Source of the DNA: Blasia pusilla
Taxonomy: Eukaryota
Assembly (NCBI GenBank): GCA_050084515.1
Contig: CM114271.1
Coordinates: forward strand, 35,836,001 to 35,900,000
DNA length: 64,000 bases
Direction of reading: 5' to 3'
Part shown: in pieces, positions 9,037 to 44,926 of the stretch
How the letters are laid out: each line of letters opens with the position of its first letter
Position numbering within the stretch: position 1 is the stretch's first letter
Notes under the pieces: generated by a model
The model's input: only the letters and a program-made list of their open reading frames with translations
Databases searched by the model: none
Told to the model about the DNA's origin: nothing
Position numbers and translations under genes: made by a program

Positions 9037-10422
9037 CTATCTCGCCTCCATCGTTCTACTCATATTTATTTTACTGGAGATGAAGCTTCTCTCCCACAGT
9101 TCGGAGGCCGTCATTATTTTCGACAGCTCCAAGCTGACGGCCCTGATTTCGGGTCGATGGGTAGGGTTGTCGTCTATGCACGATTTGGCCAGAAGCGCAA
9201 CCTTCAATGCATAATCCAGAGGGTAAGAGTCTTTGAGAAGAGGATCCATCCACTGACGCAACTTCACTCTCGGCTCTCGATCGTTGAATATGGCCAGCAC
9301 AGAGTCGTGGAGAGAGCTTACTTTGATGACGTTGGAGCCAGGATCACCACGTTGGGTGCTAGGTTCCTGACCCGAGAGAATCTCGAGGAGCACAACACCG
9401 AAAGAGAAGACATCGGATTTTGTTGTCACCGCTGCATTCGACTTTGACTCTGGAGCCATGTAACAACGAGTACCATTGATCTTCCTGCTGCGGGAGTGAG
9501 TCAGTCGGGGTCTAACCACTGACGGTGATGGCAACCCTCCCTCCTCCGTGATTTCACTCGAACTCGAAGCAAGGTTGGCAGAGACGTCTGTAGATTCCTC
9601 TAGCTCTCGCGTAGCAAACTCTCCAGCCAAGTACGCCACACCAAAGTTGCAAATCCTTGCACGAAGAGTGTTTCCGTCCAGAAGAATGTTATTGCTTTTG
9701 ATATACTTGTGCACGAAAGGCTTGTGCGTGTCTTCATGCAGATATTCCAGCCCTCGCGCCACATCCAGGGCCACCTGAAGTCGCAGTTTCCATGTGCTAA
9801 GCACACAATAGCCAGGTGAATGAGGGCTACGCAAACATTCCCTCAGCTTGACGCCCTCAATGAGCTCGTATACCGCATACACATTCTCATCTCCATCAGG
9901 AGCGCATGCACCTATCATGGGAACGACATTCATGTGATGAACACTGCACAGCGTTTTCACCTCCGACGCCAAGTCGGTGAACATCTCACATTTCTTGTGT
10001 TTCGTGATGGCTACCTCCAGACTATTCCTCACAGTTCCTCGGTACACAGAGCCACCGATTCGACGGCTGGAGCTGAAGTTCTCCGTAGCACGTCTGAGCT
10101 CCCTATAGTGAAAAATGTAGGCTCCTCCACCGACCACATCCTTCACAGTTGCGAGCGAGTCCCTAGAGACCTGGGACTCTCTGGAATGGGATTGTTGGGA
10201 GTCCCTAGACAGCTGGGACTCTCTGGATAGTTTATTCGGCGTATAGCCCGCACTCACGCCTGAAAAATCCGAGCTGCTGCTATCATGTTGGTTAACCTTG
10301 CTGCTACGAGTCCCGGGCCAAGTTCTTGCCGAAGCTTCCCGACTCGAAGAACTGATCTTCAAAGTCGGCTTGCGCTTTACCAAGCACATGGTGGACCGGA
10401 GTATCTTTCGAAGTGAGGGCAT
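9037..10422 (-). CDS. LysM-RLK-related receptor-like cytoplasmic kinase, probable pseudokinase (At3g57120-like), intronless
   Basis: Uninterrupted ORF with kinase subdomains: IFHYRELRRATENF, RIGGSVYRG, VHKYIKSNNILL, CNFG, GTRCYMAPE, KSDVFSFGVVLLEILSG, WMDPLLKDSYP, RP. No signal peptide, LysM or TM segment. First ATG at 10422; alternative start MCLVKRK at 10389. Confidence 0.92.
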   Translation of the reverse strand: MPSLRKILRSTMCLVKRKPTLKISSSSREASARTWPGTRSSKVNQHDSSSSDFSGVSAGYTPNKLSRESQLSRDSQQSHSRESQVSRDSLATVKDVVGGGAYIFHYRELRRATENFSSSRRIGGSVYRGTVRNSLEVAITKHKKCEMFTDLASEVKTLCSVHHMNVVPMIGACAPDGDENVYAVYELIEGVKLRECLRSPHSPGYCVLSTWKLRLQVALDVARGLEYLHEDTHKPFVHKYIKSNNILLDGNTLRARICNFGVAYLAGEFATRELEESTDVSANLASSSSEITEEGGLPSPSVVRPRLTHSRSRKINGTRCYMAPESKSNAAVTTKSDVFSFGVVLLEILSGQEPSTQRGDPGSNVIKVSSLHDSVLAIFNDREPRVKLRQWMDPLLKDSYPLDYALKVALLAKSCIDDNPTHRPEIRAVSLELSKIMTASELWERSFISSKINMSRTMEAR

Positions 10423-13400
10423 AGTATCAACCCGTACATAATTCACATCTGAAAACCTTGTAAAGCATTCAAGTAAGCCCACCTCTCAGTTCCTCCACTC
10501 TTATTGTCACTCAACTGTGAAGTACTACGCACCTCCACTATCCTGGTAGAAGCGCAGAAGCAAACTGCTGCTCTGCCTGATCCCTTGCGAACCCCTACCG
10601 CTGCTCTCGTCATTGCCGACAAACAATCAATGAACTACATAGTCCGAAGGCGTATTTTCTCGCTTAGCCAGCGAGGTACTCATCCCCTCCTCTCCTCACA
10701 CGTACGGCCTCCTCACAAGATCTGGATCTCGATGGTCGCGGCGACAAGCAAGACTCAAGCCACGGAGTACACACTGTCCGTCATGGATTCGAATCGGCGT
10801 GCTCAAATTTCTACTCGACGCTTGCAGATCTCCAATCCTTTTCGCCTACTGCCTCTCGAAGAAATCACAATCTGAACGGTGCCATACCTCTGCTCCAGCG
10901 TCCTCTCAACCTCGTGAGACACTCTTGCTTCTCCATAACAACCATGTCAATCTGCGTATGCGTGACTACCTCAGAGCCACCAATCCTTCACCGCTTAAGC
11001 CTTCTACTTCCCAAGTATGCCTTCCCCCACCCACAGTGCGCAGCCCCGGGGATACTTTCCCTTTCTTTTCAACTCTTCACGCTTCACAAAGCTTCAAACC
11101 GGAAGCTTATATTCAAAGTGATACACTCCCCACGGGACGACATTATTATTCACGGAGATAGTCAATCCTTTTCACTCATTTCCGCGAATCGAATACCCGC
11201 GCTTCGCCTCTTCCTTCCTGCGTCTCCGTACCCCGGCTCCAATTTGTCAGCTTCTTGCCGAAATGTTTCAGGACTGTCGGTTGTGGGAATACAGCCCGCA
11301 CCGCACGACCGCGCCCGGCGCCGAGATGCGAAGAACAGACACAAAACGCGGGCGGGCGAGGAGGCGGGCAGGCACCACACTCAACCTCTGGCGCCAGTCA
11401 CCCGATCACGGCCGCACACGCGTGGCTTCGCTGGTTGTGGCGACGCTGTCGTCTTGAGATCCAGCTAGTAATCCAAAACACAATACGTCGAGAATAGCCT
11501 CTGTGTATGAATAGGTATACCATACCTTAAGGATGTTCAATGCGGGTAGGGACAAACGACGCTTTTGAAAAAAAATTGTTCCGAAATGAGTTTCCCATTT
11601 TCTTATCTTTAAGATTTACTGAAGGTATATAAATTCGTGGATAGATATATCCGAGTTTTACTACGAAACTGTGAGTGTACATATCTCTACGAATGAATCA
11701 TCTATTATTTTCTATTCTCTCCGGAGTTTTTATGAATTTCCAACGCATATAAACGAATGGGGCTTTTAGCCTCAGCGATGCTATGATTCGGCACCGTGAA
11801 ATATCCACCTTGTCTCAACAAACGGGCATATTCAAATGACGGGGGTGTTATATTTGGCGAATCACTTCCTCTATTTTTTTCATAATATCATTTGTAGCTG
11901 CGCCTCTTCGACACCTCACTTAGTATGACTTTTTCTGTTTGAATCGGTTGTTGAATTCCCCACTAAAACCCTTAATTATGAACCCGGAGCTTGGAGACAC
12001 GGCCTTGAATGATTCATCTTGTCTTGGCGAGACCGTAGGTGGTAGCGAAACGGTAGCGACAACCCCAGTTACCGAGCCACGCAAGCGGCAAGCTATGTAC
12101 CGCGTCTCCGAAGGCTTGCTTCGAGGTCCCAACATCAGTCCCCCCCAAAAGGTCTTCAAGGCGTCCAACGCCATTGACCGACGCGGGTGAATAAAGCTCA
12201 CGGTCCCGGCCCTGAACTTCGTGGAACTATTAATTATTTATGATTATTATTACGTTTATTTATTATTGTCCTCATTCAGCTAAACTCCTCCTCGCAGCCT
12301 TCCTTCAATCCGACGGCGATAAGTTTGCCCGGTGGGGAACTAACTCATTATGACTCGACGGGAATCGCGCAAGATCCTAAAGATGCTAGCAAGCACGGAC
12401 ACACTGGCTTCGCTCATATGGCTTTCAGATTAGCACCGCTGCCCAGTGCCCACCGCAGCAGCTAAAGGTGAGAGTACGGCAGTGAGTTTCCTCGGTGAGT
12501 GGTGGAGCGCGAACGTGTCCATCGAGGAATGGTGGAACTTTATGAGTTGGTGAGAAGATCCGCCATCTGCCACCTCCCTACGCCTCCCCGCTTACCTTTA
12601 GGTCTATTTGTTGGGTTCCCCAACCTTTTCTCTACATATATTTTATTCCCTTACCTTGGATCCCGAAGTATCTGGATAGAGAGAAGTGATAGGGGTTTAC
12701 CACCTTCTGACCCGACCATGACCGTCTGAGATCGGAATCAACCGCTCCGTGTCTGTATGCAACGTCTTTCGAAGCCATCGTCACAACTGTGTGATAGCGG
12801 GTCACGGGAGACGAAGAAAGAATGAATTCAGAGAGAATCGACCGTTCTCGCGAGGGAGAGGGGGTGGTGAAACGAAATTTACGAAATGAGCGAGACGCTT
12901 CTGGGGATGGAAGAACGGAGTGAATGTGGCGGGCTTAAATTTAGGTCATCTGGTGAAGGGGTGGAAAGAACCGTAAAGACTCGAGATTCACAGCTATGGG
13001 CGTTCGAAGCATCATTATTAGCATTACTGTACTTCTTAGCCCTAGAGGAACTATTTATTATGGCCCTCATGTTATCGGCTGTACTGGTTGTTAGTTTGGC
13101 CACAAGCATAAAAGTAAATCGATGCAAGTGCTTCACCAATAGGAAATGGACGGCTGCAGCGCTTGTTGTTGCTCGCTTTACCAAGGTGGGACGGGCTAAG
13201 ACCTATAAACTCCGTTGCAGGTAGGATTTCTACAATAGGCGATTTTCCTGGAAAAGTAGTTCTTTCTTCCTCCTCTTTTCAATATGTGAGGCTACACTCC
13301 TGAGAAACTTCCGCTTCCATCTCTGTAGGTTGGCAGTCCTACTTTCGTGGGAAACAGCTGCCGTTCAGACACATCCCAGTCGTATGTCATTCTTTCTCTA

Positions 13401-14689
13401 TCCTCGAGCCTAGAACAGAAGTCACAATCTACGATCGGCAACATATTATTGCACGATCATTCTGCCAGCGGCAAAAGTCTTCCCACTTCGTTGCGTTTGC
13501 TCCAAGTTTGTTCTGCTGTGTGGTTGTTTTCTCATGCCCACTTCCGCACGCCTAAATGTAGCTTCTCGATCAACTCGAGAGTGGCTATGTGCAACATCAG
13601 CCCGCATGTGTTCTTCCGTCATTATGCCATACGTACTTTCACAGCTTCTGGCTTAGCCAAAACTTTCCCAGTTCCACGCCATCTTCTTCCAAATTATTAT
13701 TTCCTTACTTTCCGTCTCAAATTGCGCTTGACAGACCAGGAACACAGCAACAGTCCGGAGTGAGACTTTGTTCGGTTCTGTAGAAGTCAGTTCTCATCCA
13801 CATCCAACCCCACCACGTCGTTCGCTTGCCGGCTGTTTTCTTGTCGGTAAATCCTGCTCCTAACTTTTAACCGTAGTTCACTTTGTGTGATTTTCTTTTC
13901 ATCGGTAAGAGCGTAAGTACTTACGTGAAAGTACCACATTTTCCGGAGGTTATCACGTTTCTAAATTCTGTTCCAAAGGTCAGAATAGAGTCTAGATTCC
14001 CATGCTATGCACGCCTAGGGGAAATAGGGTCACTTTATCACTACCCGATCTAAGTCATTTCATCACTATCCCATGCTACAAGAATGCAACAGTATTCTTG
14101 TAGTGATGAAATGATTTAGATGGTTTTTTCTCATAATACACACCAATGATTGGGGAGATCCGCGGTTACGTGTTGTGCTGGCCGGCAGATTTTCCGATTT
14201 TCCGATCTGATTTTGATGTTTCCGGCAGGGTTTCCGGCAGGGTTTACGATGGTTCTGGAAGCTGACCGGATTTCGGGGGGTTCGCCGGAATTTCACTGTT
14301 TACCGGCAGAAATGTACCGGATTCTGACGCCGGACATGAGGGGCTGCCGGTTCTAAGCCGGAAAGAGGTTTCCGGTGGTCGGTTTTTGGGCCCCGTCATA
14401 TTCCGGCAGCCGGAATATTTTGGTAGCCTCTGATTGGCTAGTAGAAGGGACGGTCGGATGATGTCGAGGAGGAGAGGCTACATCAGGACCGTCCCATTTA
14501 CGTTTTACCCCCCCCCCCCTCCGCCGTTTCAGGTCATCATTCTGAGCCGTCCGATCCCGATCGGACGCTCAGCACGGAGGGTCGAGCCTCTTGGGGCCCG
14601 GCCGAGGGGGTGGAGATCCCACGCTGGCCCCTTCGAGCCCTCATTCTTCGATTTTCTTCCTGGCTGATGACTCTTCCTCGCTCGCCGTT

Positions 14690-15050
14690 CGTCGCTCGCT
14701 CTCGGAGACTCGGACGCTGGCTCTCGGTCGCTCTCTTGGACGCTTCGTAGCTCGCTCTCGGACGCTGGATCTCTCGAACGCTGGCTCTCGGAGGCTCTCT
14801 CGGACGCTGGCTCTCGGACACTCTCTCGGACGCTGGCTCTCGGACACTGGCTCTCGGACGCTGACTCTCCGACGTTGGCTCTCGGACGCTCTCTCGGACG
14901 CTTCGTAGCTCGCTCTCGGACGCTGGATCTCTCGGACGCTGGCTCTCTGACGCTCTCTCGGACACTGGCTCTCGGACGCTCTCTTGGACGCTGGCTCTCG
15001 GACGCTCTCTCGGACGCAGGCTCTCAGACGTTCGCTGCTCGGACGCTCGT
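14690..15050 (+). repeat. Minisatellite array of CTCTCGGACG(CTGG) units inside the hAT element
   Basis: More than 20 short units; CTTCGTAGCT recurs at about 14743 and 14901, suggesting a ~158-bp higher-order duplication. Confidence 0.9.
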
Positions 15051-15277
15051 TCCTTGGAGACGCTGCCTGATTTTTTTTCATGTATCGCTCGAGCCTCGGA
15101 CTCGGTCCCTTGACGATCGTTCTTGCGCCGCTTTCGTTTTCGTTGGGACTTTGGGACGCTCAGACGTTGGTTGCTCGCTCAGACCTTCCTTGTATTTTCA
15201 CAATTCTTGTTTTCACCTTGCTTGCTCGGTCGGACGATGCTCGGACCTTGCTTGCTTGCTCGCTCGGACCCTGGTTG

Positions 15278-15413
15278 CTCTGACGTTGGGACTCTGGAGT
15301 CTCGTAGCACTTGATGTTTGATAGCTCTTGGAATTCTCAGTTTCTCTCTGACGTTGGGACTCTGGAGTCTTGTAGCACTTGTTGTTTGATAGCTCTTGGA
15401 ATTATCAGTTTCT
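15278..15413 (+). repeat. Tandem ~68-bp duplication upstream of the hAT transposase
   Basis: ctctgacgttgggactctggagtct...tgtttgatagctcttggaatt.tcagtttctc occurs twice. Confidence 0.85.
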
Positions 15414-15494
15414 CGCCGAGTGCCTGGGAATTTGGGATTCTAAATTTCTTGGAGACATTGGTCTACCTCGGATTCTGGGAGTATCAGATCAGGG

Positions 15495-17715
15495 ATGGCA
15501 AAGAGACAGAAAACTATGACAGCTTTCCTAGGTAAGGAACAGGGAAACAAGGAGTCAGACATTATCCCATTATCTGGCTCTTCTGATGAAAAAGAAGAGC
15601 AAACTCCATCAAGAAGCAGTGGGGCTTTACCTGAGAAAGTTCGTGTTGTATGGAAGGATGTATGGTACTCATTGTATGATTGGATTGAATTTGATTCTGA
15701 CCTTGGTAGAATCTTTTGTAAAGTTTGTAGGAAGGGGAAGGGGAAGAGTGTCTTTGCCAGGGACGGTGCAATTAATTGTAAGGTTTCAGCCTTTAGTGAT
15801 CATGCCAAGTCTAATGAGCATATCAAGCTTGTATGGGCTGCAAATGGGGGTAAGAAGTCCATGGCCAAGGCCATTGCCACAACCAATCGAACCTACGAAG
15901 CCGCTCTGATGACATTGTTTAAATGGGCATACTTCCTTACGAAGGAGGCTATCCCATTTATCAAATTCTCTAGTCTTTGTAAGTTGTTAGTTTCTGTTAA
16001 TGCTCCCATTACCAAAGACCTATACCAAGATGAGAAGAGTTGTAGTGAAATGTCTTATTTCATTAGCCAAGTCTTACTTAGTAGAAGTCTTGCTAAAGTT
16101 CAAGCCTCTCCTTTCTTTGGAATTATGATCGATGAGTCGACTGACATATCCGTAACAGGGCATCTGTTCGTGTTCGCTACTTTCATTGAAGAGGGCCAAG
16201 CAGAATCTTGTTTTCTAGGATTAATTCGTTGCAAATGAAAATGTTCTAATGTTATTACCGAAACTTTGCTGCAACTACTGAAAGATGGAGGATTGGAATT
16301 CTCCAAAATCGTTGCATTTGGTTCTGACGGTGCCTCAACAATGGTAGGTAGCCAAAGAGGGGTAGCCTCTCAATTGAGGCAGAAGGTAAATCCCTACATT
16401 CTTTCAATTCATTGTGTAGCCCATAGAACAAATCTGGCCGCTTTATCAGCTGCCAAAGCTCTTGATTGTAAGTCAATCTCCTTTGAAGTTGACTGGATTC
16501 TCAATGTTGTAGCTAGCTACTTTAGAAGGTCCTTCAAGAGAAAAACAGGCTTGTTATCTTTGCAGGAAAAATTCAATGACTCCCAGCGAGTCATGAAGAG
16601 ATATCACAAGATTCAGTGGTTATCCCGTTGGCAAGCTGTGACCACATTGTGTGATTCTTTAGAATCGGTACTGACGTACTTCCGAGATATATCTTCTTCA
16701 GAGGATGATGGGAATGCTGCGAACTTGTTTAACAAGTTGAGATCATTCCAAATGATCTATCAATTGTAATTTTTTGGCTGACATTCTTTCCAAGCTTGCT
16801 AGTTTGAGTAAGATATTTCAATACCAGTTTGTAGATATTAGCACAATTGGGAGCATTTTCAATTCTGAGGTAGCTAGGATAACCATGAATTTTGTGATGG
16901 AAACTCATGACTTAAATTCTTCGACCTTCTCTGAAGAAACAGGTTACCATATACTTCCTGACTTTGGGCCACCTTGTGGTTATCTTCGTCGTTTACAGTC
17001 TGAGATTAGGGGAAACAAATTTCATAGCATATGTATGTCTCGGGATCGGACAGGAAGTGACTTAGAGGCTGCCTTGTTCTTTCAGAAAAGGTTTGTTGAA
17101 AGTGTGTGTGCAGCTTTACATGATCGATTTCGAGACAACAACCTCGTTGGTGCAATGAAAATCCTTAATCCTTTGCATATGCCATCACGGCAAGTGGGAT
17201 TGAGTAGTTGGGGATGTAAAGATTTAGATGATTTGTGTGGTTTTTTCGGAGCCTAGTTGCCATTGCAAGGTCACTTGCAACCTGCAATCATTAATTCTCC
17301 ACTTATAAAGCAAGAGTTTCAGTCTTTCAAAGTGATGGCCACCATTGAGTGGAAGGATCGCAACTTCGGAGACTTGTGGGCTATGGTGAGTTGGAGTCCC
17401 TCTCTACAATGTAAATTTTCTAATTTGTTGATTTTGGCAGATGTAGCTAGGGTCCATTGTGTTAGTACTGCCATATGTGAGAGAGCATTTTCCATTCAAA
17501 ATATGATCAAGACTAAATCTTGTAACACGTTGACCACCAAGTACTTGGATGCAGTTTTGAGGATTGCCTTGGAAGGACCGTCCTCTGATTATGAAGATAT
17601 ATTGTCTGAGTCTGTGGTCTTGTGGAAGAATTCTGCTCATTTTAGGTACTTGTTTGCAAATCCATATAGATATGTCTTCCCAACTGTGGAAGAGGAAGCT
17701 ACTCATACATCTTAG
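15495..17715 (+). pseudogene. hAT transposase (ZNF862/C17orf113-like), disrupted
   Basis: N-terminal CKVC...H...H zinc finger, IMIDESTDIS (D), FGSDGASTMVG (D), IHCVAHRTNLA (CxxH), WLSR, STAICERAFS (E, dimerisation domain). Broken near 16238, 16769 and 17256. Confidence 0.92.
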
Positions 17716-17773
17716 CCTTTGTGTTTTAGAAAGAAGGAGTAGGACCCTTCTAGAATGCTTGGAGCAATGAGGC

Positions 17774-17940
17774 TCCAAGTATTGTAGAGGGGTAGGATCC
17801 TTGGCTCCCAACTGGTGGGAGAGTAACCAGGTTCAACTCCTGCCAAGGATGAGGATAAAATCCTTTGTAGGGAATAAGGAATTTAAGATCTTTGGCTCCC
17901 AATAGGTGGAAGGCTTGCCAGGTTCAACTCATGGCAAGAA
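17774..17940 (+). other. Two tandem tRNA-like (tRNA-Glu-like) degenerate units
   Basis: Units start TCC at 17774 and 17861. Each has GATC.TTGGCTCCCAA and the B-box CCAGGTTCAACTC. Unit 1 has the T-arm CAGG-TTCAACT-CCTG and ends CAAGGA. Confidence 0.5.
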
Positions 17941-18404
17941 TGATGATGTAGGAAGTTGGAAGTAGGAGTTACTTGAAATGAAACTGAGGGAAAAGGGTTG
18001 GGAAGTTGGGTACTATGGAAGTTGAGTACCAGGGAAACTTGAAGGAAACTTCAAGTTAGTGACAGAAAAAAATCAATTGAAGTTGCTGACAAAGAATCAA
18101 TGGAACCGGAAATGTGGCTAGGCCAAATAAAGTTGGCAGAAATGTGGCTGGGAAAAGAAAAAGTATCAGAAATAGACCGAAAGGAAAAAAAATTCCCGGA
18201 GAAAAAAGGTTCAGAAAAATACCAGCAATTGAAAAAATTTCCGGTCACCGCCAGTAAAGAAAAAAAAACCGGGAAATTTGACATTTCCCGATATTGGACT
18301 GACAAATAAAAAAAAACTTCCCGAACCCTGATACACACCCTCATGCAATACTCTCTAAAGTTGGTAGATACCTTTTAATAATGATGTGCACATTCACTAA
18401 TTGA

Positions 18405-20374: not shown

Positions 20375-23300
20375 CTAGGATTACGGTGCCCGTGCGATGC
20401 ACTAGGCCACAAAATTTGGTATCGCACGAAAGTTGTCATATAAAAATTTCTTTATAAACCACATTGGGTGTGAATTTATTTTTTTTGTGAAGGGAGGTTT
20501 CACTTTCCAACATTATTTTAATAGAACTCCTAGAACTCACTCTTGACAAAGCAACGTAAAGTTGACCATGTGAAAAAACACTGGTCGGAAGATAAAAACC
20601 TACATTACGTAGATTTTGGCCTTGGGATTTATTGATAGTCATAGCAAAAGCCTGCCTAACAAGGAATTGGAATCTTCGTAGATCAAATGGTAAACCACGG
20701 TAAGATGCAATTAAAGGGATACCTGGAATAAAAATTCGGTCCCCGATGTTCTTCCCGATCATGATCTCCGCATCAATAATTGTTCTTGAGAGTCCACGAA
20801 CAACCAATCGAGTTCCATTAGCTTGTCCTTTAGAACCATTCATATTCCGCAAGAGCATGATCGGAGCACCGATTTTCAAGGTAAGACGATTTGGAGGCAG
20901 ACCGGAAGGGAGACATGTATTCAAGAACTCGGTAGGATAAATATGACACATACCTTCATCAGCAATAGAGTCATGACTTAGATATGTGCGTTCCTGAAAG
21001 CAAACATATACATGTACAAATCTTAGTAAGAAGATAGCTTGAAATATTTGCAAATGCGAGTAAAGTTGAAGTAGAAATTTATACATGCTTAGATATTAAC
21101 TCTCTAATGCATCGAGACATGACTTCAACATTAATATCATTGACATGTATATTTCATCGAGTCAAAATTGAAGTATCCCTTAAGAAATCTATGTCATTAA
21201 ACCTATGTGTATGATTTCCATATATTGTGTTAATAAGATCTGTTATCTTATTTGTATCACATACCATATCATATGTTAAGTCAATGATATCTTCCCCTAG
21301 ATGAGAATCATGCGGAATACTGCCTTCTCGCACCTTCAACAACCAATCAGCAAAATTTGTTTGATCATGACGAATAGCACCTTTTAAACATTGCACTCTC
21401 ATATTGGCTTTAAGTTTGAAAACCTTGACATGAGGCCATAAGTAGGATCTCTTTATCGTTGCTTTAACTATTTGCGCCCGTTCACCATGATGAACAATGG
21501 GAAGAACTTGGCAAAAATCACCACCAAAAATACATAGTTAACCACCAGAAATTATATCCCTCAAAGGCAATGAAATAACCCCCATGATGTCTTGAAAATT
21601 TTGATTCATAGCCTCAAAGGTATGTCGATGAGCCATGGGTGCCTCATCCCAAATGATGAGCGATGCCTTCTGGATAACACGTGCCTCCTCACTATTGATA
21701 CTTATCCTACATGTGGAGGTTTCATCAAGGATTAGAGGAATCTTAAAGTGTGAGTGAGTTGTACGACCACCATGCAATAACAATGCAGCAATTCCAGACA
21801 ATGCGACAACCAAAGCTATACCTCCCCTAGATCGTACACTTGAAAGAAGGAGATTGTACAAAAAAGTCTTTCCAGTTCCACCTCGGCCATCAATGAAGAA
21901 TAATTTAAATGTGGGTGAAGCACAATCTTGAGTAGTTTGGATTTCTTGATGTACAATATCCCAAACAATCCTTTGACCATCATTTAATTGAGCCTCTCCA
22001 AGATTGACTTCTTGAAGTAAATTCTCTTGATCGTAAATGTACTCCTCTGCTTCAAAATATGATGGCATATAGATTTCCAAATGGAATATGGGTTGGGGCA
22101 TGTCAGAAAATGTAGATATATGCTTTCCTTGGTCCTGTAAGTGATAATGCACTTCCAATAAAGCAATATTTATGATAGTGGCATTTAATGGCAAATTTGG
22201 AAGTTCACTTTAATTTTTTGCAAAGAAAGGTACAGAAAACATAAGCAAAAAAGTTGAGAAGAGAATAAAAAAAGAGTCCAAAGATTTAAATAGGAGAAGG
22301 TGTAACTAACCTAACGTTGTCTCCACAAAATATCCTCAGTGAGTGGTCCTAAAAATTTTTCCCATAGTGATGTCGGTCGAGCAGGAGTGTTATAGGCTAA
22401 AATGGCAGCAAAGAGTTGACGGAGTGAAGAGCCAACACGAATCTCATAAGCCTCTTGCAAGCAAATGAAAACCTCCCTATCATCTTGTAGAAGCCCTAAT
22501 TGAATAGCAGCTTCTTTAAAGGTCAGATATAGTACTCCATCAATCCTTCTAACATCTTCATAACAGGTTGAACCTCAAACATGATGTAGTAGCAATCTTA
22601 GCCAATGGCCTTCTTCTTCTCCTACATGCGCACAAAGTTAGAAATATGAAGTAGAGTATACATATTCTTGGCTACATCCATAGGACAGAGAGAACGAAGC
22701 AAAAGGATATGATGGTATTTAGCTGGGTGGGTAAGATACAATTGTCCAATAGGTTGGCCGCAACCATTACGCCCACGAACTCGACGTATCCAAATTTTAT
22801 TCCTCCAAGAATAGAAAGAGGGGAATTCAAGATATAAGTATCCTCAAGCCGGAGGATCCAAACGATTAGTTGCAAACCACTATATAAGGGTGGTTTGTGT
22901 GCTTCTTGCGAGAACCTGTGTAGGGGCCTTGTGATCATGATAGTATATCATTTGTGCATCAAGAAGATGCACAACCAATCTCACAATATTTGGCATCTCC
23001 TTGTGGAGAGAAACCTTGAATAGTCTCCAACATGCTTCCGAAGAAGAAACATATCTAAGGAAGTAGTGGAAGAAATGAATTAGATAATGAGGTTAGAAAC
23101 ATGTAGTACCAAAGTGTTCAAACTTGAAAAAGACAACAAAGAGTACATTACCTTGCAACAAGGAATTGAATAGTCTCATCAATCAGCAATTCGTTTCCTT
23201 ATGTATTTGTGTCATTTGAAACCCCAAAGGAAACAACATCGGAACCTTTGTATACATATTTGTAGAAGTATTTCACAACGGAGATACTATTGGTGATCTC

Positions 23301-42400: not shown

Positions 42401-43567
42401 AAGACCTGAACTGAGTTCTTTACCGAAGAAAATTCAGGTTAATATGAAATGAATAACCAGAGACTTCTAACAATTCCGTGTAGCCACCACTGTGCTGGAA
42501 GACTTGAGGAAACTCCTCTGAGATTTCTTCATTAACTTGAGCAGATCTCCTTAACGAAGAAAGCAGAGTAAGGTTGAAGGAAGCCACATCACAGAAATGA
42601 AATTGACCAGACCAGGCCCGACAAACAGTATGGATGTAATGGGAGATGTATAGTATCCTCGGAGGCCACGGAGGAAAAAATCACAAAGAGAGAAGGACTC
42701 TTGAGATTGATTTATTTCATAAGCTCAACTCTACTGACCAAACGAAAACTAGAAGAATGTAAATATGAGTAACGGAAACTGAGATTTCCTCGGTAAGTGA
42801 ACACCCTAACCAGCACAACTTACATCCGAAAGATGATGAACTGAAGCTTTCGAAGTCCAACAATATTAAAAAACTTGGAACCGGGAGATTGGAAATGGCA
42901 AAGACATACCAAAGTCCTGTTCACGCAGACGAGGTTCTTCTCGCACACCAGCTATGCGGTGACGCTCAAAGGCTAGTCCTATACCCCGAAGGGTTTGCAG
43001 CGTGCGCCTGTATGGTGACACATAAAAATACACTTTCCAGTCGTCTCCTTCGTCAGCTTCTATCATCTCCTTCATCTTGTCTCCACAGCGAATGGCTTGT
43101 TTCCATCCCTCCTCTGTGAGACTTATCTTAGAATCCGGAATTCTCGTGTACGCACTCTCATCCACATTCCCTTCACTCTGACCGTGCCGCACCAGAATTA
43201 TTCGCTTGGGCCGGAGTGAATAAGCCATCGAATGAAGTTGATTGGCGGGAATTTCCAGGTTGCAAGAGGAAGGAAGAACCTCGTGATTCGACGAGTTTGT
43301 GCTTCCGTTTACGAACGGAATGTCCGAGTTGCCTTTGCCGTGTACCTTACCCCGCCAATTCTCAGACGGGACAGAATAGGACTGAAAACGCGTGTGATCC
43401 GATGGCGTTTCAGCTGAAGCCTTCCAAAATCCACCCACAAACGTCCTCCATCTCCTGCTGTGCACTTTCACTCTAGGGCCCTCGCAAAACCCTCTGCCGT
43501 GACACACATGAGGGTTCCCAATTTCCTGTCTCAATGGCAATCTCCTCGACACAAGTTGCTCCCCCAT
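39469..43567 (-). CDS. Phosphoglycerate mutase-like protein (AT74-type histidine phosphatase), 5 exons: 43567-42910, 41530-41411, 40270-40057, 39884-39804, 39649-39469
   Basis: RPKRIILVRHGQSEGN, VSPYRRTLQT, EEPRLREQDFG|NFQD...RFFYRFPNGESAADVYDRIT|GFRETLRADID...VLVSHGLTLRVFLMRWYKW. All splice phases join in frame. The long N-terminal extension may be a transit peptide. Confidence 0.93.
40739..41238 (-). mobile_element. 5'-truncated LINE fragment in intron 2 of the PGM-like gene
   Basis: FKFRTGAIPL...CALCDNGDETSSHYLVSC is a LINE C-terminal Cys/His motif. It is flanked by the direct repeat GGCTTGAGAGA at 40728-40738 and 41239-41249 (TSD). Confidence 0.85.
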
Positions 43568-44926
43568 CACTCCCACTCACTCTCACTCTCACTCTCTACC
43601 GTCGCTCTCACTCACCGTCCAAGGCATAGGCACTAAAGAACTCCGTGTCTCCTCCTTTTGTTTCTATAATTATGTCCGCCGCGAGAGATTAGCAGTTGGT
43701 GTGGTGAACCAAGGTGTCCTAGGTGCACCGAACAGCCAGGTCACAACCTGTCGATGAGAGGGGAGTTTCAATTTGCGTCTGAAATGCGGTCGGTGTTTAG
43801 GCGCTCGGCGTAAGCTTCCAACTGCAGAATGTGCACGTGCTGGCTCTCCCGGACAATCGAATAGCATCGAGGCACAATCCCCTCCATCCGAATATATTGT
43901 TCGGTGCGACTTTCTCCAAGAGTCTTGGGCACAGTGCCACCCCTCCCTCTCCCCTCTCCCTCTGTTTCGGTGATTACTCACTCCTTGTCCGTACTTTGGC
44001 CGAGCAGGTGTGGTGCTGCCGCTAGTGATCGGTGTCCTCGTCACTGTGGGTCCCGAGTCCTGGACAAAGGAAACGGTGTGGTGCCAAAGTGCAAACACCT
44101 GTATGAAATCTCGGAATACAATTGAGGCAAAGAGACGTATCGGTTGCTGGGTACGAGGGAAGGCAGTGATGGCTGACTGGACGGGTCTTACTCACTCGCG
44201 TGCTGGTTGGCAGCCCGTCTGGACCGTGGATCGGGAAAGGAGGACGAATGCGGGTAGGCCCGGCCTAGCTTGATAAATTTTGGAGCTTGTGCCATCAGTG
44301 TGCAACGCTAGATTCCAGACCACATTCACATATGGCAGGTTTGCAACCGCGATTTGTACAGTAATCGTAAACTTTGGCGAACTGCGTCAGAACTTTACCG
44401 GAAAGTATACAGTTGGGAACAAGCCCTAAAACCTGAAACGAGAAACGTGACTGGCAGATCACGGTGCCGTAAAGTGTCGTGGTTTCTTTCCACAGTGACG
44501 AACAGATATCACTTTCTGAGCGACAAATGTTCATGAGTTTCGCTTTTCGGACGCAGAAGAGGGAACAAAATGATCGCTCTAGTGTAAGCGTCGATATTAC
44601 TAACGTCACCAGTGGAGAATTTCGGAATTGGTTGTAAGGAGCAGGCACTCTGTGGACGAGTAGTGGCTCTGGTGAGGAAGAAATCAGTGGGAATTGATCG
44701 GTTGGGAGGATTTCTGCGGTATAGAGGCAAGCGAGTAGGCCGGAAGAAGTCTCGAGAGGAGGAGAAATGCTGAGGAGATGGTCTAAATGACGGAGCACAA
44801 TGGGGATTGAGAATTATGGGCTGAGTAGTTGTTTGGCCGTGTAGGGTAGATTGAAGTTTGTGAAGTCGGTGGAACTCCGTTTGCACAAATGTCGTAGTGC
44901 ACAGGGAAGTGCACTTAGAAGGCCCG

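Follow-up and report, generated by a model that had tools for sequence, protein, structure and literature searches.

The stretch of DNA analysed here, referred to as the window, comprises 64,000 nucleotides of the Blasia pusilla genome (NCBI GenBank assembly GCA_050084515.1, contig CM114271.1, positions 35,836,001 to 35,900,000 of the forward strand) and contains a hAT element that carries a tRNA-like cassette behind its transposase gene. The element occupies positions 14144-18330 of the window between two 8-bp copies of ATACACAC, which form the left (14136-14143) and right (18331-18338) target-site duplications on the plus strand. Its terminal inverted repeats lie at 14144-14157 (5', plus strand) and 18317-18330 (3', minus strand). 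The 5' repeat is imperfect and matches the 3' end at 9 of 15 positions in the window copy; in three other copies the 14-bp terminal repeats agree at 12-13 of 14 positions and are accompanied by 8-bp duplications. The duplications are exact at loci L242 and L243 and match at 7 of 8 positions at L246. The script that located these ends returned no convincing ones for three more copies, of which L240 was resolved by eye, with an 8-bp duplication, while L244 and L245 gave no convincing pair. The transposase gene (15495-17715, plus strand) has no apparent intron and is broken by a stop codon at 16236-16238, a frameshift near 16760 and a further stop codon at 17254-17256; its terminal stop codon is 17713-17715. 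Intact relatives encode transposases of 728-751 amino acids with the domains zf-C17orf113 and DUF4371 and a marginal hAT dimerisation match (Dimer_Tnp_hAT, 18.7-21.7 bits against a cut-off of 21.4, passed by one of three proteins). Homologs of the transposase bear PF05699, and its nearest named protein relatives come from Riccia (46-50% identity) and Adiantum (32-36%); a comparison with solved structures gave no match. By its duplication, terminal repeats and transposase domains the host element is a hAT DNA transposon; an earlier note made from the sequence alone had already described the same transposase stop as that of a hAT transposase, in an element bounded by a target duplication. The 8-bp duplication, the 14-bp terminal repeats and the domain set are those of the ZNF862/C17orf113-like clade of hAT transposons.

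A long hairpin of 21 bp with one mismatch in the window copy (17744-17793, plus strand) begins 28 nt past the transposase stop codon and ends 3 nt before the first of two tRNA-like units. Unit 1 (17797-17850, plus strand; 54 nt) scored 82.5 bits with a covariance model and consists of an 8-bp acceptor stem (17797-17804 paired with 17843-17850), a D-like arm (17805-17821) with GG at 17814-17815, and a T arm (17828-17842) with a 4-bp stem and a 7-nt loop, while a linker of 6 nt replaces the anticodon arm. The eight acceptor and four T-stem pairs form a stack of 12, and the T loop is intact. Numbered from the first acceptor base, positions 14-20 are D-loop-like with GG at 18-19, and these positions would fit an elbow contact of the D-loop guanines with the T loop. 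The local fold of 17731-17860 gave the hairpin, three unpaired bases and then a three-way junction at 17797-17850. Model scores were 82 bits on the sense strand versus 12-15 bits on the opposite strand. Unit 2 (17888-17941, plus strand; 55.9 bits) is a tandem copy that lacks the long hairpin; it is decayed in the window, where 4 of its 17 pairs are broken, and near-intact in many sister copies. The earlier note had described two tandem units of about 87-91 bp, each beginning with TCC, and this observation was borne out in part. Two related units do lie 91 bp apart and the T arm of unit 1 is present, but the common part comprises only 64 nt (17793-17856 and 17884-17947, 80% identical), and the TCC/A-box stretch is missing from unit 2. 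What had been taken for the A box of unit 1 is the 3' arm of the long hairpin, which had been overlooked.

The RNA structure is conserved across the copies of the family. In 32 units from 25 loci, 96.5% of the 540 alignment cells that should pair did so, and two-sided changes occurred at 10 of 17 pairs (four in the acceptor, four in the D-like and two in the T stem). None of 500 shuffles reached the observed pairing values, and slid controls were 37-57% paired; this statistic is no probability, because the alignment was fitted to the structure and its rows are related. Even without any fitting one can see that both strands of the acceptor stem have been exchanged in the distant lineages, and the D-like stem in the metagenome ones. 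The T loop reads TTCAAHT in all 32 units and the D loop contains GG in 28. Among 19 subfamily representatives, the pair A1-U72 was found in 19 and GG at positions 18-19 in 16, and in 18 of them the helix is exactly 12 bp long with an unpaired base at position -1. The T loop elements C56, purine 57 and A58 are kept together with about 12 stacked acceptor and T pairs and the 7-nt loop, and the linker in place of the anticodon arm measures 3-8 nt across units. In all 17 own-genome representatives the hairpin is more stable than expected (z-scores of -3.9 to -8.3) and ends 3-6 nt upstream of the unit, whereas the downstream control is unstructured (z-scores of -2.1 to +2.2). The sense strand was the more stable one in 14 of these 17 cases. 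Identity over the 105 pairs formed by 15 main-clade representatives was 0.89 in the unit, 0.72 in the hairpin and 0.53 in the downstream 55 nt, compared with 0.52 after shuffling. The unit is thus better conserved than the transposase coding sequence, with its 0.70-0.88 identity between clusters, a range preferred to a second estimate of 0.68 that is rough due to some short protein matches. RNAalifold on a first MAFFT alignment kept the hairpin and the acceptor stem but paired the D loop with the T arm. The fold with D and T arms was preferred to this inner pairing, because distant lineages show two-sided changes in it. Ribozyme cores of the hammerhead or hepatitis delta virus type were not seen by eye and had no Rfam match.

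The cassette belongs to the transposon family. A protein search of the genome (390 Mb, 26 contigs) gave 1296 candidates, 150 of them listed, and 84 loci were examined, 72 chosen by protein and 12 by cassette. A transposase match was obtained at 83 of the 84 loci, and 77 of the 83 contain the cassette core, in 11 clusters with 70-88% coding identity between them. The core is missing in the other six, three of which are visibly broken in or directly past the hairpin. When loci were chosen by a fern protein regardless of the cassette, the covariance model found it in 29 of 30, including four from two lineages at about 50% protein identity that lay outside the input of the model. The check proposed in the earlier note, whether the units are conserved across family copies with compensatory stem changes, thus gave the core at 77 of 83 loci and two-sided changes at 10 of 17 pairs. 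An exact 21-base cassette motif had 220 genome matches, and a variant motif from one distant lineage had 65; copy numbers rest on these exact matches plus the examined loci. Of 20 motif matches sampled from the 220, namely the first on contig 1 outside the protein list, 19 have a transposase upstream and the last has a hAT-like 3' flank. A second hAT family of the same genome yielded no unit in 30 copies by covariance model and generic descriptor; these copies are essentially one family, and the descriptor recovers 23 of 30 in-clade loci. Beyond this genome, 11 motif hits were obtained on metagenome contigs. Four of them follow a hAT transposase match (39-52% identity) and a fifth has the same flanks; three resemble tRNA-Arg genes of bacteria, and the last three have no explanation. 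No relative was found on viral contigs. Rfam gave no family match to the cassette region at E<=10, mascRNA and menRNA included, and among titles and abstract openings, outside subscription journals, Repbase and Dfam, nothing apparently describes the element. Judged by this comparison, a sense-strand hairpin and a tRNA-elbow mimic are held by selection behind the stop codon across a hAT clade. The feature is genuine. It is no tRNA gene and no short interspersed nuclear element (SINE); whatever its role, it is very probably a selected tRNA-like RNA structure.

The three bacterial sequences (L193, L198 and L200) look like tRNA-Arg(CCT) genes, and their final 21 bases are identical to the T arm plus acceptor 3' strand of the cassette. 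The 3' half of the cassette is therefore a natural tRNA sequence, and the match is probably a convergence.

Two units are present in 29 of 32 loci of the window's subfamily, 30 of which were retrieved by a two-unit query. Other subfamilies, too, have duplicated units, with spacings that differ, and three units were counted at one locus. The subfamilies with duplicates form at least three separate groups on the transposase tree, in which several forks are weak. The second units that were inspected lack the long hairpin. In one member of the window's subfamily, unit 2 (L013:1564-1624, minus strand) has a linker unlike that of unit 1; because this linker resembles those of other subfamilies, the unit may date back to an earlier duplication or be a product of recombination between subfamilies.

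The earlier note had likened the layout of the units to tRNA-Glu. Unit 1 does resemble the host tRNA-Glu above shuffles, with a local score of 55 that was reached by none of 300 shuffles (mean 28.8, best of 35 distinct host tRNAs). Four other copies scored 44.5-55 against host tRNAs, a level reached in 0-1 of 300 shuffles; for unit 2 of a sister copy the best match was tRNA-Gly, and 13 of 300 shuffles did as well. In each of the 15 main-clade representatives, which are not independent of each other, 21-26 of 32 bases in the 5' part agree with tRNA-Glu, and no shuffle out of 100 was as high for any of them. The match is weak in one distant lineage (21, with 3 of 100 shuffles as high) and was not seen in three others by the same test with 100 shuffles each. 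A fold in the register of the tRNA-Glu cloverleaf was rejected by inspection, since the supposed anticodon stem has no partner. Instead the fold is re-registered: the former D-arm strand lies within the hairpin and the former anticodon-stem strand forms the acceptor 5' strand. From the sequences, a capture and refolding of a tRNA-Glu in the main clade is plausible, but not proven. ARAGORN found no tRNA gene in the window, and in relaxed mode gave low-threshold calls only; the Rfam tRNA model (RF00005) had no match at E<=10. The units thus give no tRNA-model score, an outcome that the earlier note had itself named as speaking against its reading. With neither an anticodon arm nor a tRNA-model match, the cassette is not a tRNA gene.

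Side observations were made on the tRNA genes of the host. All ten tRNA-Glu genes inspected (L041-L050), which were chosen by one 3'-end pattern, have a conserved 3' trailer before a T run, with GCTCCCGAG in nine and a variant in one. The trailer continues with GACTAC or a close variant and is complementary to the anticodon stem and D-arm side of its own tRNA; an Rfam search of five of the loci returned nothing beyond the tRNA. On the 3' side of tRNA-Gly(TCC) genes (L066-L070), the trailer motif GGCAATGAAGAA is shared by four of eight genes and a fifth has a box-C-like variant. These may be dicistrons of tRNA and small nucleolar RNA; the four that were searched had no Rfam small nucleolar RNA match at E<=0.01.

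As to the function of the cassette, we lean towards the view, drawn from its sequence and from the analogy with MALAT1 and mascRNA, that ribonuclease P (RNase P) cuts at the cassette and leaves a hairpin-capped transposase mRNA. The cassette would then be an RNA 3'-end processing signal of the transposase transcript. A putative nuclear protein-only RNase P (PRORP), the plant form of the enzyme, would bind the elbow and, at a distance of 12 bp, cut directly before the unit's first base, in the window between 17796 and 17797, and the transposase mRNA would end 3-6 nt past a stable hairpin and not in a poly(A) tail. RNase Z may then free a tRNA-like RNA of 53-58 nt. The cut would end transcription ahead of the 3' terminus of the element and the host flank, the hairpin would protect the new mRNA end and the tandem units could act as back-up cut sites. 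The purpose might be protection from decay or silencing, or else a damping of transposase output. A broader version of this proposal, argued by analogy, is tentative: an old plant hAT clade would have refolded a captured tRNA-Glu into an anticodon-less mimic, a nuclear RNase P cut would end the mRNA hairpin-capped and without polyadenylation, and the element would thus avoid read-through RNA and decay or silencing linked to poly(A). According to the available text on PRORP substrates, the enzyme needs the D and T loops (G18, C56 and purine 57) and disregards the anticodon arm (PMC3562450); the position of the cut is set by the combined length of acceptor and T stems, with 12 or 13 pairs accepted, and the base before the stem must be unpaired or meltable (PMC4797305). 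The cassette keeps the features reportedly read by PRORP and drops the rest, and a PRORP gene is present in the genome.

RNA sequencing data neither support nor exclude cleavage. A search among sequencing runs for this stretch listed no RNA run that contains it. On a sister element with an intact frame, the read counts from three raw runs were 48, 47 and 36, and nearly all of these reads are partial matches at 90-95% that derive almost entirely from other subfamilies. Reads over the open reading frame have a single orientation; for a stranded library of the usual kind this would be the sense orientation. An attempt to trace the expressed copy led to one candidate locus, which matched one of six read-end motifs.

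Several points weigh against processing by RNase P. A message without poly(A) still needs export and translation. No pile of read ends was seen at the cassette of the sister element in the three shallow runs, and one RNA contig assembled from a fourth run does not stop at the unit but runs on for another 33 nt. A single PRORP locus was found, whose assignment to the nucleus is an assumption of the model. In a context of 300 nt the predicted probability of the acceptor stem is at least 0.9 in unit 1 of L013 but about 0 in its unit 2 and in the two units of the window. The hairpin is weak in two metagenome lineages (z-scores of -0.2 and -2.6), and in 3 of the 17 own-genome cases the opposite strand folds more stably. 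TFIIIC may bind the cassette as well, because its T loop matches the B-box motif. Finally, the split into eight and four pairs without an acceptor-D linker is not among the PRORP substrates described in the available text of PMC3562450 and PMC4797305.

It is rather unlikely that the tRNA mimic stays on the mRNA, either uncut or cut by RNase Z only, in which case the message would end in the hairpin and the tRNA-like unit, and serves to bind proteins, to stabilise the message or to transport it, for instance by carrying transposase mRNA from cell to cell into the meristem or the germ line. Retention would draw on the same structural conservation and would agree with the RNA contig that runs past the unit, and the hairpin, only 0-6 nt from the acceptor stem, might hinder RNase P. 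According to the available text of a review (PMC6747330), the movement of mRNA in plants can be set off by tRNA-like structures. Yet the 12-bp helix and the unpaired base at -1 in 18 of 19 lineages are the geometry for the RNase P ruler, and tandem units that lack a hairpin are easier to understand as spare cut sites than as a terminal cap. Nor is an aminoacylation identity preserved, because the base after the stem varies (A, G or T) and no CCA is encoded.

We regard a function at the DNA level as unlikely. Here a tRNA-Glu-derived pair of A and B boxes, or a lone B box, would bind TFIIIC and act as an RNA polymerase III promoter or anti-silencing barrier, the RNA pairing being secondary. The T loop matches the B-box motif in 32 of 32 units, the units are duplicated in several subfamilies and the 5' part retains its tRNA-Glu match. 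A T loop as such, though, demands the bases of the B box too. The A-box-like stretch, scored by the A-box consensus, lies 50-54 nt from T54 in the 15 main-clade representatives and has 5-6 of 7 positions there. It has only 3-5 in four distant lineages, however, compared with all 7 in 32 of 35 host tRNAs; G10 is lost throughout the main clade, and the stretch changes together with its hairpin partner. The first TTTT occurs anywhere from 2 to 616 nt downstream of the cassette. The acceptor and D-like stems covary at 8 of 13 pairs, which TFIIIC would not require. The promoter or barrier option of the earlier note is hence the weaker one, because a DNA-level function has no need of the base pairing in RNA (acceptor, D-like and T stems plus hairpin) on which selection acts.

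A subterminal cis element for transposition, either a transposase-binding or a cruciform site, is very improbable. The cassette does contain many palindromes and sits 400-500 bp inwards of the 3' end, but a miniature inverted-repeat transposable element (MITE)-like copy of about 180 bp (L240:4729-4904), with the ends of the hAT family and its own 8-bp duplication, lacks it. Relatives of this copy gave 301 genome candidates, and among the 41 listed, 36 cover at least 150 of the 191 query bases within 215 bp, as read from the match listing; such short elements with the ends of the cassette-bearing family leave no room for the cassette, and the transposase that mobilises them is putative. The strand bias of the model, 82 bits in sense versus 12-15, also speaks against a DNA site. 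Reads from related copies map onto the MITE-like element in the RNA sequencing data.

Hardly credible and largely refuted is a neutral relic, namely the decayed tRNA-derived SINE head offered in the earlier note as the simpler alternative, or a tRNA pseudogene: the main-clade similarity to tRNA-Glu and the decayed unit 2 of the window would fit it, but the unit carries compensatory changes and is better conserved than the transposase gene, the sampled motif matches sit in hAT surroundings with no free insertion among them, and the flanks that were read showed no SINE tail.

The interpretation of the earlier note was supported in part. The idea of a tRNA-like cassette inside a DNA transposon holds, and of the three functions it had named, promoter, barrier and mRNA 3' processing signal, the last fits best, with RNA pairing under selection.

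RNase P is known to make the 3' ends of long RNAs in vertebrate long non-coding RNAs and in plant mitochondria. Like the cassette, mascRNA of MALAT1 and menRNA of NEAT1 (MEN-beta) are small tRNA mimics in a long transcript, downstream of a protective 3' structure. The available text of PMC11693755 and PMC13541005 gives them 57-58 nt, cut by RNase P and then by RNase Z, with two D-loop guanines docked on the T loop and the tRNA linker residues absent. As far as they are described there, they differ in being parts of vertebrate long non-coding RNAs with a 7-bp acceptor, a full T arm, an anticodon-like arm and protection by a triple helix, whereas the hAT cassette lies behind a plant protein-coding transposase, with 8+4 pairs, no anticodon arm, a plain hairpin and a cleavage that is predicted. 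The cassette is no member of the mascRNA/menRNA family proper, as the hairpin in place of the triple helix and the lack of an Rfam match indicate. The t-elements of plant mitochondria (nad6, orf138 and ccmC) are likewise tRNA-like structures that separate or end mRNAs, and those of nad6 and orf138 are cut by PRORP1 in vitro according to the available text of PMC3858429. They are organellar and belong to host genes; the hAT cassette is nuclear and mobile, has hundreds of copies and keeps a D-like arm. Another structured RNA 3' of a hAT transposase open reading frame that governs mRNA fate is the ENE/dENE behind rice TWIFB1 (PMC13541005, available text). There U-rich loops clamp the poly(A) tail, while the tRNA mimic would remove it. 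In the main clade, three parts of the cassette resemble a tRNA-Glu gene or a tRNA-derived SINE in sequence, namely the 3' arm of the hairpin, the acceptor 5' strand and the T arm, but the cassette has no fold in that register, no anticodon arm and no free-standing copy in the sample. From the second hAT family of the genome (0/30) the host family is set apart by carrying the cassette.

Other features of the window lie apart from the cassette. The 5' untranslated part of the element contains a GC-rich minisatellite with a period of 13/26 bp (14669-15036), and a 68-bp tandem duplication is found at 15278-15413. An inverted repeat with 21-nt arms (95%) at 14048-14121, directly outside the left end of the element, is possibly a small MITE. 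Fragmented PIF1 helicase frames on the minus strand (20436-22209) are likely a Helitron remnant, and the same strand has a protein kinase frame at 9037-10485 and a histidine phosphatase frame at 42866-43576.

By its sequence, the cassette would be a tRNA mimic of the RNase P type with a new host and a new fold, outside the tRNA, SINE and mascRNA families. Whatever its mechanism, it constitutes a covariation-supported RNA family that is absent from Rfam, has hundreds of copies and is not limited to a single organism. The exact predicted cut site at 17796/17797 makes it a candidate for a natural minimal substrate of PRORP and RNase Z, and a portable, poly(A)-independent terminator for plants is a possible use. 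If the proposal of RNase P processing is true, the message of a nuclear protein-coding transposase would extend the RNase P route of 3'-end formation, a DNA transposon, and with it a nuclear message that encodes a protein, would follow a MALAT1-like maturation, and the hAT element would represent a new way in which a DNA transposon manages its RNA.
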